Below are positions 3,028-49,203 of a stretch of DNA of 64,000 nt, piece by piece. Position 1 is the first letter of the stretch. Each line of letters begins with the position of its first letter. The stretch is from a virus. The notes below the pieces were generated by a model that was not told the DNA's origin, made no database searches, and worked only from the letters and a program-made list of their open reading frames with translations. The position numbers and the translations under genes were made by a program. Location of the stretch: the IMG/VR virus record IMGVR_UViG_3300046170_000173. The stretch is one strand, 5' to 3'.

Positions 3028-3245
3028 TAGATTATATTTCTTGTACCGAAGACGGTTCAACGATCCGTCTCTATGACTCCGACGAATTCCGTCCAGTGTG
3101 TGAGTCCAATGATATCGCTGAACTTGCGAACACATACCTCAAGTATGGTATTGCGCCTACAGTGATGGGTTCGTCTGACTGGTTTGAGGCACCGTTCTCA
3201 ACCGCTCGCGATCACATCATGAAAAAAGTCTATGAAATAATCTAG
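3024..3245 (+). CDS. Hypothetical protein
   Basis: GGAGG RBS; ATGA overlap. Confidence 0.65.
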   Translation: MIDYISCTEDGSTIRLYDSDEFRPVCESNDIAELANTYLKYGIAPTVMGSSDWFEAPFSTARDHIMKKVYEII

Positions 3246-3255
3246 GAGAAATTGC

Positions 3256-3408
3256 ATGATGGATGTTTGGTGTGTCGAGTGGTATGATGAAAACGATGAA
3301 CGTCACATAGAATGGAATGTTCGAGATCCCGAACTTCTTCGACAGAACTTGCTTGACCTTGGTATGGATCCTACCCGAATCGATATCTACATGAAGGATG
3401 TGTCCTAA
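3256..3408 (+). CDS. 50-aa hypothetical protein (not in ORF track)
   Basis: AGGAG RBS; MMDVWCVEWYDENDERHIEW...; TAATG coupling. Confidence 0.65.
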   Translation: MMDVWCVEWYDENDERHIEWNVRDPELLRQNLLDLGMDPTRIDIYMKDVS

Positions 3409-23647: not shown

Positions 23648-27763
<4,116 letters not shown>

Positions 27764-41717: not shown

Positions 41718-42200
41718 ATGTTAGACTACGTCGCATACGTGACAATTAGAACAGGGCAGATCAATAGATGCAGTGCCCCTCAATACAATACTCCATCAAA
41801 TGGTACAGTAGTTGATGATGGTATTAGTCTTGTTGTCTACGTAACAAAAGATAATATTCCGGATGGATGTGAAGGTCCGTCTCAGCTTAGAAATGAATAC
41901 ACCTATGACATGGTAGAATATAAGTTCGTCCATATCGGTCTTCCGCCAAACCAACATGCGGAATGGAATCCGGAGACTGGTGATTGGTCATGGGACTCAG
42001 AACTTCTGGAACAGGACATCCGAATAGAAAGAAACAGATTGTTGACTCTTTGTGATTGGACTCAGATTCCAGACGCCCCATTGTCACTTGATATGAAGAA
42101 TGCATGGGCAGGTTATCGACAAGAACTACGTGATATCACTTCAGACTTGGAAGGGGTGTCTAGTATATTAGACTTAAACTGGCCTACTACACCACAGTAA
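41718..42200 (+). CDS. Tail fibre assembly chaperone
   Basis: IR.ERN.LL..CDWTQ.PDAPL.....W..YRQ.LRDIT ... WP..P. Confidence 0.85.
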   Translation: MLDYVAYVTIRTGQINRCSAPQYNTPSNGTVVDDGISLVVYVTKDNIPDGCEGPSQLRNEYTYDMVEYKFVHIGLPPNQHAEWNPETGDWSWDSELLEQDIRIERNRLLTLCDWTQIPDAPLSLDMKNAWAGYRQELRDITSDLEGVSSILDLNWPTTPQ

Positions 42201-42319: not shown

Positions 42320-45300
42320 GTGTCAGCATCTAGTATACCACTAAAACTTCAAAATGCTAATGGTGACCTACAAGAATTCACTCCATCGGATGAGCTTTAT
42401 CTATCCTTTGCAGTGGGACAAGCATTAGTTGCGGCCGCTTCTAATGACGTTGGTAATATCAGTTTAACTGATGGCCAATCAATCGGTTCGTTTGTAGATT
42501 CTTACTACAATGAAATATCTGGCACCCACCCTGCTTCACAAATAACGGGTGCCTCAGTGACCACCACTCTGAAGCAAGTGAGTGGCCCAGCAGACGAATC
42601 CGGTGCAGACTTTGTCCGCCCAGTAGGTTATTACGACGTTGATCCAAACCCAGGCTTCTACGAAATGGTAGATGGGGATATGGACAACCTAGCAGGTCGT
42701 GTTCTGTCTAACTTAGTACAGAACGACTATATCGGTACTTTCAAACTGTCCGCTACTCAACCAAGTGCAGACTATACAAAGTTTATTGACTCTGTATTCT
42801 CTGACACTCATGGTAACGGTGGGGCAGGTACCGTAGTAACAAACTATCACATTTGGATGCGTACTTCTATGACGGCAGTTGCTCCAGTTCGTCCAGTAGC
42901 GACAAGCTACGACGGTTCTGGTTTCAACGGTCTACGTGAAATGACGGATGCGCAGATTCAGTACACACTGGGTCAACGTATTAAGTCAATGCGTGCTACG
43001 TCAGGAGCGATTGGTTCATACCAGTTGCGTTCCACAGCACAAGGCGCACCGACAGTCCCAGGCTCATGGTTGCCTGTAGGTACTGCACAGAACACACGTC
43101 GAACTCCAGTTGATGTTGCATACGCAAGAACTCGCGTATCTTCATACAACCGTGCACGTGTTTCTGCATACACTCGTACTCGCGTATCTTCATACACGCG
43201 TAATAGTGTAAATACATTTAGTCGTACCTTTGTAGGAGACTACACTGGTGCATATTCACGCGACTTCGTAGGTAACTACTCGCGTGACTTTGTTGGGAAC
43301 TACTCGCGTACTCGCCCATCATCGTACTCAGGTACATATGCAAGAACTCGCGTATCATCGTTTGCACGTACTCGTTTAACAGCGTTTACTGGATACTTTG
43401 CGGGAACTTACTCACGCGCACGTGTTTCAGTTTATACACGTAACCGTGTAACACCATTCACTGGTACATTCTCACGTAACCGTGTTTCAACATACACTCG
43501 TGGTCGTGTATCATCTTACGCCGGTACTTATTCTCGTAACCGCGTTTCTTCATACGTTGCAGACTATACACGCAACCGTGTTTCAACATATTCTGGAACA
43601 TATTCGGGCACTTACTCCCGTCTACGTGTTTCTGCTTATTCTGGAACATACTCGCGTAACCGTGTTTCATCTTATGCTGGAACATATACGCGCACACGTG
43701 TATCTACTTACGCAACTGACTTTACCCGCACCCGTGAAGAGAACTTCGCAGGGACTTACACTGGTTACTATACTGGCGTATTCTCTCGTGCTCGTGTATC
43801 AACATATACGCGTAACCGTGTAACAGGTTTCGCAGGTAACTTCATTGGTAACTACTCTCGCAACTTCCAAGGTAACTATTCGCGTAACTTCGTGGGTAAC
43901 TACTCTCGTGGATTTGCTGGAGATTACGTAGGTAACTACTCTCGCGTATCAACACGTACATCAACTCGCACACGTTACAGTGCTTACGCAAGAACACGCA
44001 TCACTAACTATGTTGGTGACTTTACTCGTGATCGCGTCACTAACTTTGCGGGTAACTTTGTGGGCAACTATGCTCGCACCTTCGTAGGAAACTACGGTGG
44101 TAACTTTATTGGAAACTACGCTCGTGACTTCGTTGGAAACTTCGTTGGAAACTACGCTCGCGCATATGTAGGTAACTACTCTCGCGGATTCGTAGGTAAC
44201 TACGGTCGTAACTTCCTTGGAAACTTTGTCGGAAACTACAGTCGTAACTTCCTTGGTGACTTCACCGGAAACTACGCTCGTGGTTTCGTCGGTGACTTCG
44301 TTGGAGATTTCGTAGGTAACTACGCACGTACTTCAACTCGTACATCGACTCGCACACGTTACTCTGCATATGCTCGTACTCGCGCAACGAACTACACTCG
44401 CAACCGTGGTTCTGCTTACGCTCGTACATCTACTCGTACTCGTTACAGTGCATACGCAAGAACTCGTGCAACAAACTATACAAGAACTCGTGGTTCAGCT
44501 TACGCACGTACTCGTATCACTAACTACGTTGGTGACTTCGCGCGTACATCTACTCGTAGCAGACCATCTACGTTCTCTTATGCACGTACTCTATACTACG
44601 CAGGTGACTTCGTAGGTAACTATGGTCGTACTCGTGTAACAAACTATACTCGTGCTTCAGCGGTAGGCGTGACCTATACAGGTAACTACACACGTAACCT
44701 ATACTACGTTGGTAACTATGCTCGTGGATATGCAGGCAACTTCGTGGGTAACTACACACGTAACCGTGCATTTTCATACGTAGGTGACTATGCTCGTAAC
44801 CGTGCATTCTCATACGCAGGTAACTACACACGTACTCGCGCAACAAACTACACTCGTAATAGAGTTGTTGCTGGTAACTCTACTCGTGTAAGCACAAACG
44901 GTGCTGGTTTTGTTGGTAACTTTGCAGGTAACTATGCAGGCAACTTTGCTGGTAACTTTACACGATCTACATCATCAACACGTACATCAACACGTGTTTC
45001 TACTGGTGCTGGTGGTCAGGTAACCAACGCATATTCCGGAAATAACTGGTCGTTAACTACAGGTTGGCGTTCGGATAGTGAAGGTGGAACCAATTTTGTT
45101 ACCGTTTATATTAATGGAACTTTAGTTGGAGGCATGACAGGAAGCGGAACATCTCTGACTGCTGGCGGTGTAACATATTATCGTGCTGCTTGGCGAAACA
45201 CGAATGGATTCGTATCACATTATGGTGTTACTTACCAATCGGGTGGTGCCTCTTATACTGGTAACTTTACTGGTAACTTTACAGGAACTGCTACTTACAC

Positions 45301-47206
45301 TCGTACTTCTACAAGAACGTCAACACGTACTTCGACTCGTACCCGTAGTAGCACTTTCTACTACACAGGTGATTTTGCGAACTCAACAACTTATGTTGGA
45401 GATTTCGTAGGTAACTTCGGTGGCACGTATACTCGTACTCGTACCGGAAACTACACTGGTAACTACGCACGTACTCGCACTGGTAACTACACTGGTAACT
45501 ACTCACGTACTTCGACACGCACACGTTATAGTGCTTACGCAAGAACTCGTGTTGCGACAGGTACTTACACACGTGACCGCGCTGCGACACTATACTACAC
45601 AGGTGACTTTGTAGGTAACTTCGCTGGTGCATACTCACGCACATCTACCCGCACATCAACCAATACTGGTTACTACTCACGCACACTGACTTACGCAGGT
45701 AACTACGTAGGTAACTATGCGACAACGTTCACTGGCGACTTCGTCGGTAACTATGCGCGTAACTTTGCGGGTGATTATGTTGGTAACTTCGTAGGTAACT
45801 ACGCTCGTGGATTTGCTGGTAACTATGTCGGTAACTACGCTCGCACATTCGTGGGTGATTTCGTAGGTAACTTCGTAGGTAACTATGCACGTGCATACGC
45901 TGGTAACTTTGCTGGTGACTTCGTAGGTAACTACGCGCGTACTCGTGTAACTAACTACACCCGTACTCGTAACTCTGCGTACACACGTAATCGCACACAG
46001 AACTTTGCGAACTCTTACGCTCGCACACGTGAAACAAACTATACTGGTTACTACACACGTAACCGTGCATCCGCATACGCTCGTACTCGTTACAGTGCAT
46101 ACGCTCGCACACGTGTAACTAACTACGTCGGTGACTTCACACGCGATTCAACCCGCACATCTACTCGTAACCGTGGTTCTTCATACACACGTGATCGTGT
46201 AACTAACTTCGCTGGTAACTTCGTAGGAAACTACGCAACAACGTTTACCGGAAACTTCGTTGGTAACTACGCACGTGGATATGCAGGCGACTTCGCTGGT
46301 AACTACACTGGTGACTATGCTCGTACTTCAACGCGCACTCGTTACTCCGCATACGCTCGTACTCGTGTATCTGCATACGTCCGCAACCGTGGATCATCAT
46401 ACACCCGTGATCGTGTAACTAACTTTGCTGGTGACTTTGTAGGTAACTACTCTCGCACCTTCTCTGGTCAGTACACACGTCAGTTCGCTGGTGAGTATGT
46501 TGGTGATTACGTAGGAACGTTCGCAGGTAACTACGTTGGTAACTTCAGTCGTAACTTCGGTGGAAACTACGTCGGTAACTATGCACGTGGATTTGCTGGT
46601 AACTACGTAGGAGATTATACTCGTGGATTTGCTGGTGAGTACACTGGTGCTTATTCCGGAACATACTCTCGCGGTTTCGCAGGGAACTACGTAGGTAACT
46701 ACAACCGTGGATTCGTTGGTGAGTACACTGGTACTTACAACACAACGTTTACAGGTAACTACTCACGTGGATTCTCCGGACAGTACACACGCGACTTCGC
46801 TGGTGACTTTACTGGAAACTACGCAAGAACATTTGCTGGTGAGTATACTGGTGCATACGCACGTGACTTCGTAGGTAACTTTGTAGGTAACTACAACCGT
46901 GGATACGTTGGTGAGTACACTGGTACTTACTCACGTGACTTCGTAGGTAACTACTCTCGTGTCCGTGTATCTGCATACGCACGTGTTAGACCATCATCAT
47001 ACAGTGGCGCATACACGCGTGATCGTGTATCAACATACGTAGGTGACTTCACTGGTAACTACACTCGTGACTTCGGTGGTAACTACACTCGTAACTTTGC
47101 TGGTAACTACGCACGTAGCTTCGTCGGTAACTACATTGGTGCAACCATCTCTGACACGCAGACACACGTTACAGATGTTTACACACTATATGTAAGGGTT
47201 GCATAA
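42320..47206 (+). CDS. 1628-aa self-complementary tetrapeptide-repeat protein (putative giant antiparallel beta-hairpin fibre)
   Basis: 267-aa base domain + 630-aa arm + 81-aa tip + 630-aa arm + 20-aa tail; own late promoter and terminator. Confidence 0.85.
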   Translation: MSASSIPLKLQNANGDLQEFTPSDELYLSFAVGQALVAAASNDVGNISLTDGQSIGSFVDSYYNEISGTHPASQITGASVTTTLKQVSGPADESGADFVRPVGYYDVDPNPGFYEMVDGDMDNLAGRVLSNLVQNDYIGTFKLSATQPSADYTKFIDSVFSDTHGNGGAGTVVTNYHIWMRTSMTAVAPVRPVATSYDGSGFNGLREMTDAQIQYTLGQRIKSMRATSGAIGSYQLRSTAQGAPTVPGSWLPVGTAQNTRRTPVDVAYARTRVSSYNRARVSAYTRTRVSSYTRNSVNTFSRTFVGDYTGAYSRDFVGNYSRDFVGNYSRTRPSSYSGTYARTRVSSFARTRLTAFTGYFAGTYSRARVSVYTRNRVTPFTGTFSRNRVSTYTRGRVSSYAGTYSRNRVSSYVADYTRNRVSTYSGTYSGTYSRLRVSAYSGTYSRNRVSSYAGTYTRTRVSTYATDFTRTREENFAGTYTGYYTGVFSRARVSTYTRNRVTGFAGNFIGNYSRNFQGNYSRNFVGNYSRGFAGDYVGNYSRVSTRTSTRTRYSAYARTRITNYVGDFTRDRVTNFAGNFVGNYARTFVGNYGGNFIGNYARDFVGNFVGNYARAYVGNYSRGFVGNYGRNFLGNFVGNYSRNFLGDFTGNYARGFVGDFVGDFVGNYARTSTRTSTRTRYSAYARTRATNYTRNRGSAYARTSTRTRYSAYARTRATNYTRTRGSAYARTRITNYVGDFARTSTRSRPSTFSYARTLYYAGDFVGNYGRTRVTNYTRASAVGVTYTGNYTRNLYYVGNYARGYAGNFVGNYTRNRAFSYVGDYARNRAFSYAGNYTRTRATNYTRNRVVAGNSTRVSTNGAGFVGNFAGNYAGNFAGNFTRSTSSTRTSTRVSTGAGGQVTNAYSGNNWSLTTGWRSDSEGGTNFVTVYINGTLVGGMTGSGTSLTAGGVTYYRAAWRNTNGFVSHYGVTYQSGGASYTGNFTGNFTGTATYTRTSTRTSTRTSTRTRSSTFYYTGDFANSTTYVGDFVGNFGGTYTRTRTGNYTGNYARTRTGNYTGNYSRTSTRTRYSAYARTRVATGTYTRDRAATLYYTGDFVGNFAGAYSRTSTRTSTNTGYYSRTLTYAGNYVGNYATTFTGDFVGNYARNFAGDYVGNFVGNYARGFAGNYVGNYARTFVGDFVGNFVGNYARAYAGNFAGDFVGNYARTRVTNYTRTRNSAYTRNRTQNFANSYARTRETNYTGYYTRNRASAYARTRYSAYARTRVTNYVGDFTRDSTRTSTRNRGSSYTRDRVTNFAGNFVGNYATTFTGNFVGNYARGYAGDFAGNYTGDYARTSTRTRYSAYARTRVSAYVRNRGSSYTRDRVTNFAGDFVGNYSRTFSGQYTRQFAGEYVGDYVGTFAGNYVGNFSRNFGGNYVGNYARGFAGNYVGDYTRGFAGEYTGAYSGTYSRGFAGNYVGNYNRGFVGEYTGTYNTTFTGNYSRGFSGQYTRDFAGDFTGNYARTFAGEYTGAYARDFVGNFVGNYNRGYVGEYTGTYSRDFVGNYSRVRVSAYARVRPSSYSGAYTRDRVSTYVGDFTGNYTRDFGGNYTRNFAGNYARSFVGNYIGATISDTQTHVTDVYTLYVRVA
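43121..45010 (+). repeat. Outgoing arm: 154 tetrapeptides plus 7 dipeptides ([YF]xRx, [YF]xG[ND], RVSx, STRT)
   Basis: Manual parsing of the translation. Confidence 0.9.
45254..47143 (+). repeat. Returning arm: 154 tetrapeptides plus 7 dipeptides, mirror-complementary to 43121-45010
   Basis: Manual parsing of the translation. Confidence 0.9.
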
Positions 47207-47313: not shown

Positions 47314-47775
47314 ATGAGTTATAGACGTTGGATGGACAACGCATTCTGGGAAACAGAAGAGAAGAAAGAACTAAACTGTATCCTAGAAATGGAAGATGAT
47401 ATGGGTCGTGTCACCCGTCAACAAATGTTGTTGGCAAGACATGATCGTGATGGAAATACCAACGAATTGTTTTCGGAAGTCGTAGACGCACTTGGTGAAG
47501 AGTTGATTGATAAGGAAACTACCGATCGAGTCGAACGCAAAGCTGCGGAGGCGGAAGAAGAGAAACAACGTGAATTGGAACATCAAAAGGCTAGGAAACT
47601 TGAAAAACTATTCAACTACAAACTAGAAGCGTTTGAGGTTGAGGAGATTAAGAACTCTAAAAACCGGAAGTTAAAGGCAAAATTGCGTCGTGCAAAATCT
47701 AAGATTGAAGTCGATATGTACTCAATTATGATTCTACAAGACCAACTAGAGGCCGAGACAGATGGAAAAGAGTAA
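47314..47775 (+). CDS. Highly charged hypothetical protein (candidate chaperone/adaptor)
   Basis: First gene of the cassette; GGAG upstream; E/K/R-rich helical C-terminal half. Confidence 0.7.
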   Translation: MSYRRWMDNAFWETEEKKELNCILEMEDDMGRVTRQQMLLARHDRDGNTNELFSEVVDALGEELIDKETTDRVERKAAEAEEEKQRELEHQKARKLEKLFNYKLEAFEVEEIKNSKNRKLKAKLRRAKSKIEVDMYSIMILQDQLEAETDGKE

Positions 47776-48499
47776 AGGTTTTATTATTGTTGCGTCTAAG
47801 AAACGCAACTTTTATTTGTACGCAATCAATCTTGCAGAGTCTCTCAGGGACTACTATGAACCGGAAGAGGAATGCAAGATTTGTTTGGTGACTGAGGAAC
47901 GATTCCTTGATGACCGTGGTAGAGATGTCGCAGACGATATTCTCTTATGTGACGATCACTACCGCGCTAAGTTATGGGGTATGGCGAAATCGCCGTATGA
48001 CCTAACGATGTATATTGATGCTGACATGGAAGTAGAGCATGAAGACATCGTCAAAGTATGGGACGAAATGAAAGATCACGATGTGGTCTTCACCGCTTTG
48101 ACAGATGACCGTGACTACATATATGCAGAACGTGACTTTGATACTCCGGAAGGCGTTTCTAAGTTCACACTATGCGGAGCAGTATGTTTATATGATATGT
48201 CTAAACCGATTGTACGTGAGTTCATGGATGATTGGTGGGACTTGACATTCAGACAAATGAATGACACTTGGTGGCCAGACGGGTACGTGGACAGTCTCAA
48301 ATCTTGGGATCAGTTCTCACTCTGGTGGTTGACTGAGAAAGAAGAAAAGTATAAGGATCTCAAGGTTGGTATCTTTGATGACGACTTGAGATGGAACTAC
48401 TACAACGCACTTAATTGGGCAATAACAAAACCAGAAACAGGGCCAGTGATTATACGTCACTTCTCTGCTGGTCTTAATAAGGATACACCAATCGTATGA
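47762..48499 (+). CDS. GT-A fold glycosyltransferase (GT8-like)
   Basis: A..LA.SL, RAKLW.M..SPYD.T.YIDAD (DxD), WDQFSLW, RWNY, I.H. Confidence 0.8.
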   Translation: MEKSKGFIIVASKKRNFYLYAINLAESLRDYYEPEEECKICLVTEERFLDDRGRDVADDILLCDDHYRAKLWGMAKSPYDLTMYIDADMEVEHEDIVKVWDEMKDHDVVFTALTDDRDYIYAERDFDTPEGVSKFTLCGAVCLYDMSKPIVREFMDDWWDLTFRQMNDTWWPDGYVDSLKSWDQFSLWWLTEKEEKYKDLKVGIFDDDLRWNYYNALNWAITKPETGPVIIRHFSAGLNKDTPIV

Positions 48500-49203
48500 C
48501 ACAGTTAAACGACCAATATCTAAAGCACGTCGACGTTAAGAACCCTGAGTTGCTTGCGATTCTGGACAACTACGCTGGACTACCTAAGATTTCTGGATTT
48601 GCAGAGAACTGTCACTGCACGTCTAAGGAACGTATGCGTCAGCGTAACTGGTACGTTGGACCAAAGTACATGCAAGAGATTGTAGATGAGGGAACGCAAC
48701 ACGAAGGTTTCCCAGATGAGATGGTAGGTTATAACTTTAAACTATCAGATCGTGCACACCAAATGTTCGAATCAGATGCAGATCCAATCTTCAAGCGTGA
48801 CATGACGCACATGTTGTCGGATCTAAACGACAAGATGATGAACTTCCTGTCTGTCAAGCACAATGCGCTTGCAGCGGTATACCCACCAGGCGGTTTCATT
48901 GCATGGCACAACAACGCTAACGCCCCAGGCTTCAACCTAATCTTCTCTTATTCGGAGAGTGGTTCAGGTTGGTTCGAGTACATCCATCCGGAAACTAAAG
49001 AAGTTGTCCGTTGCCAAGACAAGCCAGGTCAGTGGACTTGCAAGGCGGCATACTTCGGACACTACGGTGAAGAAGAGAAACTAATGTATCACGCTGCATC
49101 TTCAGAAGATGATTGGCGTGTAACCGTTTCTTATGTCTTCGACTGGTCTGAGACTTCAGAAGAATTCCGTGAGATGGTACTAGAAGACATCGCTTCAGAA
49201 TAA
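48496..49203 (+). CDS. Putative 2OG-Fe(II) / cupin-fold oxygenase
   Basis: YPPGGFIAWHNN (Hx[D/N]), distal YHAA, then R.TVSY, the usual double-stranded beta-helix layout. Confidence 0.6.
   Translation: MTQLNDQYLKHVDVKNPELLAILDNYAGLPKISGFAENCHCTSKERMRQRNWYVGPKYMQEIVDEGTQHEGFPDEMVGYNFKLSDRAHQMFESDADPIFKRDMTHMLSDLNDKMMNFLSVKHNALAAVYPPGGFIAWHNNANAPGFNLIFSYSESGSGWFEYIHPETKEVVRCQDKPGQWTCKAAYFGHYGEEEKLMYHAASSEDDWRVTVSYVFDWSETSEEFREMVLEDIASE

Follow-up and report, generated by a model that had tools for sequence, protein, structure and literature searches.

How can a polypeptide with 1,260 residues of nearly periodic repeat settle into one folding register? The question is raised by an open reading frame (ORF) at positions 42320-47206 (plus strand) of the 64,000-nucleotide (nt) stretch of viral DNA analysed here, IMG/VR record IMGVR_UViG_3300046170_000173 (the window). 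The ORF starts with GTG and encodes a protein of 1,628 amino acids (aa) in five parts: a 267-aa N-terminal domain, a 630-aa arm, an 81-aa knob, a second 630-aa arm, and a 20-aa tail. A first-pass annotation of the window had proposed that the two arms pair with each other as an antiparallel stem. We find that the arms are complementary unit by unit when one of them is read backwards and that homologues carry paired insertions and deletions (indels) in the two arms. We put the probability at roughly 0.8 that the gene encodes a virion fibre formed by a single very long intramolecular hairpin with a variable knob at its distal end.

Two arms built of four-residue units

The outgoing arm (arm 1; 43121-45010, plus strand; residues 268-897) and the returning arm (arm 2; 45254-47143, plus strand; residues 979-1608) consist almost wholly of four-residue units; the spacing between aromatic residues is 4 in 167 cases and 8 in 44. 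Units were assigned to three classes: G units ([FY]xGx), B units ([FY]xRx), and R units, whose first residue is Arg or Ser (for example, RVSS, RVTN, RYSA, and STRT). The arm alphabet is limited to 15 amino acids (T, R, Y, G, N, A, S, V, F, D, L, E, I, Q, and P), and a residue count found no His, Lys, Cys, Met, or Trp in either arm. The net charge is +79 for arm 1 and +45 for arm 2, or +124 per chain. Gly contributes 158 of the 1,260 arm residues. It occupies position 3 in some units only, and the period is four, so the arms lack the Gly at every third residue that marks collagen and polyglycine II. A heptad alpha-helical pattern is likewise absent, given the spacing of 4 and 8, the richness of the arms in Gly, and the prediction of strands, not helices, at the arm base.

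The division of each arm into 154 tetrapeptides and 7 dipeptides over 630 residues, as originally annotated, was reproduced with the seven dipeptides of that annotation held fixed. The dipeptides are indeed mirrored: they occupy unit indices 122, 124, 131, 134, 149, 152, and 158 both in arm 1 and in reversed arm 2, where they form the pairs FS/LT, LY/GY, VT/LY, LY/GT, GN/TT, AG/FY, and TS/AT. The exact figure of 630 shifts by a few residues with the choice of knob boundary; the gapless pairing of residues 272-897 with residues 979-1604 does not.

The arms are complementary in a single mirror register

According to the first-pass annotation, units that begin with Arg or Ser always lie opposite a Gly-containing unit in the outer 121 unit pairs when arm 2 is reversed. 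This rule held, as 36/36 such units in the outgoing arm face [FY]xG[NDEQ] and 19/19 in the returning arm face [FY]xG[ND]. The arms were also parsed independently by dynamic programming, without reference to the mirror. With this parse, 76 of the 79 R units face a G unit at mirror offset 0, R:R and R:B contacts are both zero, and there are 35 B:B contacts. The single sharp register peak that had been predicted was recovered: offsets from -12 to +12 other than 0 give 25 to 42 R:G, 1 to 13 R:R, and 16 to 42 R:B contacts. Slipping by one unit brings 29 to 42 forbidden R:B contacts; slipping by two brings 6 or 7 R:R contacts.

Shuffling the unit order of arm 2 (n = 20,000) gave a mean of 31.8 R:G contacts (standard deviation, 4.1; maximum, 48), which places the observed 76 at z = 10.8. 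A control by circular rotation, in which blocks and repeat grammar are preserved, yielded no more than 44 R:G contacts. Parallel alignments of the arms, at all offsets tested, gave the same background as the shifted mirror offsets. At the residue level, Arg:Arg contacts fall to zero only where the positions of facing residues (r1 + r2) sum to 1873 or 1875, and neighbouring registers of the same phase have 25 to 29. A sum of 1873 puts aromatic against aromatic and a sum of 1875 puts aromatic against Arg or Gly; either is a candidate hydrogen-bond register. A code-free test on the aromatic positions alone does not discriminate registers, because the arms are nearly periodic. Only one register is free of Arg-on-Arg contacts because the order of unit types is aperiodic. 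In this way, the succession of unit types acts as a code that sets the register of a very repetitive sequence.

Finer preferences are superimposed on this rule. RxSx units favour Phe-type G units (for RV units, 68 Phe versus 16 Tyr), and STRT-type units favour Tyr-type G units (41 versus 29). YxRx units sit opposite YxRx or Gly units, and Gly units accept any partner.

In agreement with the first reading of the sequence, the arms are not reverse complements in DNA; the only inverted pairs in them are two short, weak ones, of 26 nt (73%) and 18 nt (78%). The symmetry of the arms is a property of the protein, because the arm DNA has no meaningful inverted repeat. Three other sources of the pattern were considered and ruled out. 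The lack of an inverted repeat in the arm DNA eliminates a DNA palindrome, the background level of the parallel alignments eliminates direct-repeat (parallel) relatedness of the arms, and the rotation control (maximum of 44, against 76) eliminates block-level composition.

Homologues keep the pairing and carry paired indels

The homologue set comprised seventeen IMG/VR loci from independent metagenomes and phage C48C1 (Kyanoviridae, OQ984149), with protein lengths from 312 to 3347 aa. C48C1, which shares the gene order, was the only related phage among 50,697 phage genomes in GenBank. Mirror pairing was assessed with a gapped alignment of unit classes (fold alignment); in every homologue that uses R units, a single mirror pairing predominated and extended from the base as far as the centre. 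The nine close relatives have arms of 604 to 638 aa with 70 to 76 R:G pairs each and no R:R pair. In L013, residues 268-1245 pair with 1281-2259 (978-aa arms; 106/112 R units face G); in L015, residues 262-1021 pair with 1135-1894 (760-aa arms; 84/88); and in L017, residues 271-872 pair with 895-1725 (84/86), with no R:R pair in any of the three. Arm 1 of C48C1 (residues 271-1297) is fully covered, with no unpaired residue, by eight arm-2 segments (3264-3323, 3057-3136, 2803-2886, 2561-2644, 2308-2407, 2128-2303, 1502-1810, and 1374-1497), giving 116/120 R:G and no R:R. Equal arms, which had been put forward as a test of the pairing, are thus found in homologues whose arms, paired from base to tip, range from about 600 to about 1030 aa. 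The shortest form is a 312-aa mini homologue in L018 with only 37 aa of repeat.

Paired indels had been named as a second test, and equal-sized compensating indels occur at or near mirror positions in several lineages. In both L006 and L012, 28 aa are missing from each arm (residues 674-701 and 1166-1193 of the window's protein), and the register is kept. Relative to L013, with which it shares 84% identity, L015 lacks 176 aa in each arm (120 + 56 aa in arm 1). Between the window's protein and L015, there are arm-1 indels of 8 aa at 323, 12 at 337, 144 + 28 at 414-430, 12 at 586, and 20 at 616, and arm-2 indels of 8 aa at 1547, 12 at 1528, 160 + 12 at 1444-1455, 12 at 1290, and 16 at 1231. Most of these lie within 0 to 11 residues of the mirror rule r1 + r2 = 1876, a scatter about equal to the freedom of gap placement in repeats. 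The last pair is unequal (20 versus 16 aa) and lies about 29 residues off the rule.

The family of the N-terminal domain is larger and comprises 319 representative clusters at E <= 1e-3. Among the best 150 representatives, 93 are full length (362 to 2282 aa) and end in a near-invariant ETYTLYVRxA motif. The R:G mirror code stands well above shuffles in 26 of 93 diverse representatives; 441 of their 465 R units face G, with two R:R and three R:B contacts, and the pairing starts at the base in 20 of the 26. P0066, P0023, P0003, and about 60 other representatives keep the base domain and the ETYTLYVRxA tail with a different tetrapeptide vocabulary (xxNY-type) and few Arg units.

The C-terminal tail is predicted to complete the base domain

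The base domain (42320-43120, plus strand; residues 1-267) consists of three related beta-beta-alpha-beta-beta units. It matched no family in Pfam or NCBIfam and no PHROG, and the whole fibre protein matched no family in Pfam or PHROGs. The 404-aa homologue P0049 was modelled with AlphaFold2 from a 66-sequence alignment, with a mean predicted local distance difference test (pLDDT) score of 79.7 and a predicted template modelling (pTM) score of 0.72. Residues 1-260 have pLDDT >90 and form three beta-beta-alpha-beta-beta units, and two long strands, 242-272 and 370-402, leave the domain toward the arms and re-enter it. The termini had been suspected to rejoin as a base. The model of this homologue bears this out, docking the C-terminal 24 residues on the N-terminal domain with pLDDT of 92 to 98.

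The window's own N-terminal domain has the same three repeats, which can be aligned with one another, and the last strand of unit 3 is missing from residues 1-267. The C-terminal tail (residues 1609-1628; 47144-47206, plus strand, with the stop codon) carries the ETYTLYVRxA motif, and its sequence DVYTLYVRVA is similar to that of the strand that closes unit 2 (TNYHIWMRT). As modelled, this tail supplies the strand that closes base unit 3. Because AlphaFold2 places the tail confidently in the three-repeat N-terminal domain, the giant hairpin can be understood as an extended beta-hairpin of the third repeat, and because the closing strand of unit 2 resembles the tail, the hairpin would replace what in unit 2 is a seven-residue turn.

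Structural comparison of the P0049 model with VIA-align returned a MACPF C-terminal domain (2qp2, Z 7.0), Mp2Ba1 (8b6v, 6.9), MABP (3tow, 5.7), and perforin-2 P2 (6sb1, 5.0). These matches span model residues 40-404, reaching the C-terminal tail, at Z scores in an ambiguous range that is common for unrelated models. A Foldseek search of the same model against the PDB and BFVD gave no match at E <= 0.001. The model is consistent with a base that is a single-chain, three-repeat, beta-prism-like unit. A reading of the base units as 'collar'-like, after gp37 and gp11, had rested on a gp11 match of Z 2.8 and was rejected, as hhalign gave it no support (probability 0.2%).

In a further representative, P0002 (1798 aa, cut by the contig end), the base domain is interrupted at the start of the third repeat by an insert of about 640 aa with Laminin_G_3 (PF13385) and PF14312. 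Because of this insert, the base, too, may be able to host binding modules.

A hypervariable knob at the turn and globular inserts in the return arm

The arms are separated by an 81-aa non-repetitive knob (45011-45253, plus strand; residues 898-978), which agrees with the globular loop domain described earlier. The knob is hypervariable: alignment of the nine close homologues revealed at least three unrelated knob types between conserved arms, and the tip-proximal 100 to 150 aa of both arms vary together with the knob as a cassette. Searches of the knob against Pfam gave sub-threshold matches only (Big_7, E 0.02; Laminin_G_3, E 0.099). An AlphaFold2 model of the window's tip (residues 758-1118, nine-sequence alignment) was uninformative, with a mean pLDDT of 29.7. 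Judged from its hypervariability, the knob is likely the receptor-binding tip.

Longer homologues carry additional globular domains. A 234-aa domain is looped out of the return arm in L017, and five globular inserts separate the arm-2 segments of C48C1. All six inserts observed interrupt the return arm; the outgoing arm has none and is contiguously paired. One module of about 230 aa is shared by L017 (L017:13352-14047) and C48C1 (L002:5542-6492), 55% identical (E 2e-74) and inserted at different depths from the base. Against Pfam, the inserts of both proteins gave sub-threshold matches only.

The C48C1 protein also contains an exact tandem duplication at the boundary between a globular insert and the arm (residues 2008-2156, DNA L002:6133-6579), in which 74 aa are repeated with a period of 75 aa and 222 nt are identical. 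Because the mirror rule leaves the extra repeat units unpaired, we interpret the duplication as an assembly artefact or a very recent event.

A proposed self-pairing hairpin fibre and the alternatives to it

A fibre with these features could be built as follows. Three related N-terminal units would form the base. The beta-hairpin of unit 3 would extend about 630 residues out and about 630 back, and the last 20 residues would complete the base. The arms would be in antiparallel, in-register contact along their full length, in the simplest form as a continuation of the base hairpin into a two-stranded beta-ribbon. One face of the ribbon would present unit positions 1 and 3 (aromatic with Gly, Arg, or Ser), and the opposite face positions 2 and 4 (Val, Ala, or Thr with Asn, Asp, or Ser). 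Steric and charge complementarity would allow an Arg- or Ser-initial unit only opposite a Gly-containing unit, where Gly would leave room for the guanidinium group, which could stack on a neighbouring Tyr or Phe. The aperiodic order of the units would fix the register of an otherwise slippery repeat, and evolution would keep the code through equal-size paired indels at or near mirror positions. Globular modules could be spliced into the return arm as bulges and leave the flanking pairing undisturbed.

Beta-ribbon arms are suggested by the four-residue alternation and the strands at the base. With a rise of about 0.33 nm per residue, the expected length is about 200 nm for the window's fibre and about 340 nm for that of C48C1. 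The fibre is probably external and used for host capture, and its cationic surface (+124 per chain) may help binding; a long-reach host-capture fibre is suggested because of the hypervariable knob, the modular bulges, and the position among tail-fibre genes. The most specific form of the proposal, with a lone two-stranded antiparallel beta-ribbon of 200 to 340 nm per chain, a near-binary code in which Arg units pair only with Gly units, compensatory paired indels, and modules at the loop and in bulges, is held tentatively, at somewhat less than even odds. Because the base is a single-chain three-repeat unit, a lone hairpin per chain is at least as likely as a trimer in the style of gp37.

Several points weigh against the self-pairing hairpin. 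In both AlphaFold2 models, that of P0049 and that of the window's tip, pLDDT is <50 for the arms. Covariation cannot by itself separate intramolecular pairing from the pairing of two antiparallel chains. About two thirds of the family representatives use other unit vocabularies (xxNY-type), so the code may not be general. Finally, we know of no precedent for a lone two-stranded ribbon that carries a charge of +124 over 200 nm, and such a ribbon might not be stable.

The hairpins might not stand alone. Phage fibres are typically trimers, and a homotrimer of out-and-back hairpins would form a needle of six strands, like that of T4 gp37 but on a giant scale. The gp37 needle is itself an out-and-back trimer, with a collar formed from residues 811-881 and 1010-1026 (PMC6957217), and its Gly-Phe contact between subunits (G921-F970, PMC6957217) is reminiscent of the Gly/aromatic pairing seen here. 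Base unit 3 together with the C-terminal tail also resembles T4 gp11 in a weak match (Z 2.8, 29% identity over 49 residues). However, the base already holds three repeats in a single chain, pseudo-threefold and beta-prism-like, and only one of these carries a hairpin. The arms contain no His, so the HxH iron sites of gp37 are absent, and the profile comparison with the collar-needle region of gp37 reached a probability of 0.2%. Packing three arm pairs of +124 each would also be electrostatically costly. On balance, we regard the trimer as unlikely, though it is the foremost rival to the lone hairpin. A different arrangement, in which antiparallel pairing joins arm 1 to the arm 2 of a second molecule, would yield a double-length rod with knobs at mid-rod or a domain-swapped assembly. 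Mirror covariation and paired indels are predicted equally by an antiparallel homodimer, and the monomer AlphaFold2 model is compatible with strand swapping. Such a two-fold rod would nevertheless have no distinct attachment and binding ends, whereas a hypervariable knob makes sense at a free tip. The turns between paired arms are merely 0 to 40 residues long in family members, and the tail is homologous to a closing strand that acts intramolecularly in base unit 2. Pairing between chains is improbable on these grounds.

Another possibility is that the mirror pattern arose incidentally, from the way repeats evolve or from blocks of composition, in arms that do not pair and that instead form a parallel beta-helix, a solenoid, or a spiral fold. 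The arms are compositionally blocky, and AlphaFold2 models them with low confidence. This explanation is hard to reconcile with a signal that has single-unit resolution and is gone after a one-unit shift, with rotations that keep blocks and grammar yet never exceed 44 R:G contacts against the 76 observed, or with arm DNA that contains no palindrome. Equal-sized near-mirror indels recur in several lineages, and no known mutational process gives these features without selection on contact between the arms. We therefore give the absence of physical pairing very little credence and favour the self-pairing hairpin.

Genomic setting of the fibre gene

The fibre gene is located within the tail-fibre gene block of a T4-like marine phage. 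It is preceded by genes for a fibre/baseplate-connector-like protein and for a Phage_tail_APC chaperone and followed by those for an LtfC-like protein and two more giant fibres. The chaperone gene (41718-42200; E 1.1e-14) directly precedes the fibre gene, as it does in C48C1. At the chaperone position in L018 there is a 153-aa ORF with no similarity to the Phage_tail_APC chaperone; because of this dissimilarity, the Phage_tail_APC gene may serve the preceding 648-aa fibre gene and not the hairpin protein.

Three overlapping genes (153, 245, and 235 aa) on the plus strand at 47314-49203 accompany the fibre gene across the family. The same trio lies 3' of the C48C1 homologue and of the mini homologue in L018, and the L018 counterparts are 29 to 33% identical to those of the window (E 5e-19, 4e-21, and 1e-37). 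Sequence searches of the trio against Pfam, PHROGs, NCBIfam, and the PDB returned nothing significant; these genes are candidates for assembly or modification factors. The middle gene (245 aa) contains a YIDADME motif that resembles the DxD of glycosyltransferases and has no significant family or PDB sequence match. Elsewhere in the window, overlapping plus-strand ORFs at 23648-25270, 25038-26288, 25738-26811, 26495-27154, and 26757-27209 suggest that 23648-27209 is one long gene that is frameshift-broken or read in several frames.

Implications of arm pairing

The architecture proposed here would be of a new kind, a claim that rests on covariation and not on structure. Should the pairing indicated by the covariation be real, no longer intramolecular hairpin would be known in any protein, and for the first time the folding register of a repetitive protein could be read from its sequence by a simple complementarity rule. 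In its lone-ribbon form, the fibre would represent a new class of fibrous protein fold and a new register-setting principle for repetitive proteins. For protein design, the code offers a possible route to programming long beta-ribbons. For marine virology, the fibre is a candidate for modular, long-reach host capture. Its family, with 319 representative clusters, is common in metagenomes and would be widespread among uncultured T4-like phages of marine origin, yet only 1 of 50,697 GenBank phage genomes carries it. The mirror rule is itself of use, since it predicts tolerated indels, domain insertion sites, and suspect repeats in assemblies, such as the 222-nt duplication in C48C1.

Comparison with known systems

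The first-pass annotation knew of no described equivalent. We likewise found no description of the family or of the architecture in the literature searched and no family or solved-structure match. A 2025 atlas of 67 fibres from Escherichia coli (BASEL) phages defines 16 classes, which by its authors' estimate account for about 24% of annotated tail fibres (PMC12143355). A term search of its text did not find 'antiparallel', 'hairpin', or 'fold back', and the proposed fibrous architecture would fall outside its 16 classes.

The nearest precedent among phages is the T4 gp37 tip, with its collar (D10) and its needle (D11) that runs out and back (PMC6957217), which shares several features with the proposed fibre. 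In both, the chain goes out to a receptor-binding head and back, N- and C-terminal segments meet in one base domain, Gly/aromatic contacts occur between strands, and the gene belongs to a T4-like tail-fibre module. However, the gp37 needle is shorter by roughly a factor of ten, with about 50 to 60 residues each way compared with 630 to 1030 in this family, and it is an obligate trimer with seven His-coordinated iron atoms, whereas the arms here are without His. Unlike gp37, the present protein has a single-chain three-repeat base, an aperiodic unit-complementarity code, and bulged domains. Profile comparison by hhalign of the family alignment (A2) with gp37 residues 790-1026 gave a probability of 0.2% and an E value of 0.37, and the Pfam and PHROG searches likewise revealed no sequence similarity to gp37.

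Several cellular proteins resemble the proposed fibre in layout or in detail. The arms of SMC and Rad50 and the dynein stalk have both termini in one head, matched antiparallel arms, an apex domain, and interruptions that are mirrored in both arms. The overall layout is therefore shared, as analogy and not homology. Those hairpins are alpha-helical heptad coiled coils of about 15 to 50 nm; by contrast, the present arms have a four-residue period, abundant Gly, Tyr, and Arg, and strands predicted as beta at their base, and they would be several-fold longer. The nearest structural matches to the base model are beta-prism domains (MABP, perforin-2/MPEG1 P2, and MACPF C-terminal), at ambiguous Z and with no sequence similarity. 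Domains of these types are pseudo-threefold, and P2 carries a protruding beta-hairpin. Known hairpins in beta-prism domains are tens of residues long; here they would be hundreds. The central sheet of OspA and the G5-E repeats of SasG and Aap show how cross-strand ladders can make stiff rods, tens of nanometres in length, out of extended beta-sheets that have no core. Such rods are serial small domains or three-stranded one-way sheets, whereas here one continuous two-arm hairpin with a pairing code is proposed. Parallel beta-solenoid and pentapeptide-repeat fibres differ in that the signal here is a mirror peak, with parallel alignments at background, and four residues would be too few for a solenoid turn.

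A conceptual parallel is the RNA stem-loop. Both systems have a unique register set by complementarity, compensatory changes, paired indels, one-sided bulges, and a functional loop that forms the tip. Unlike that of RNA, the alphabet here consists of four-residue peptide units, and the pairing rule is largely binary and asymmetric, in that Arg needs Gly and Gly takes any partner.

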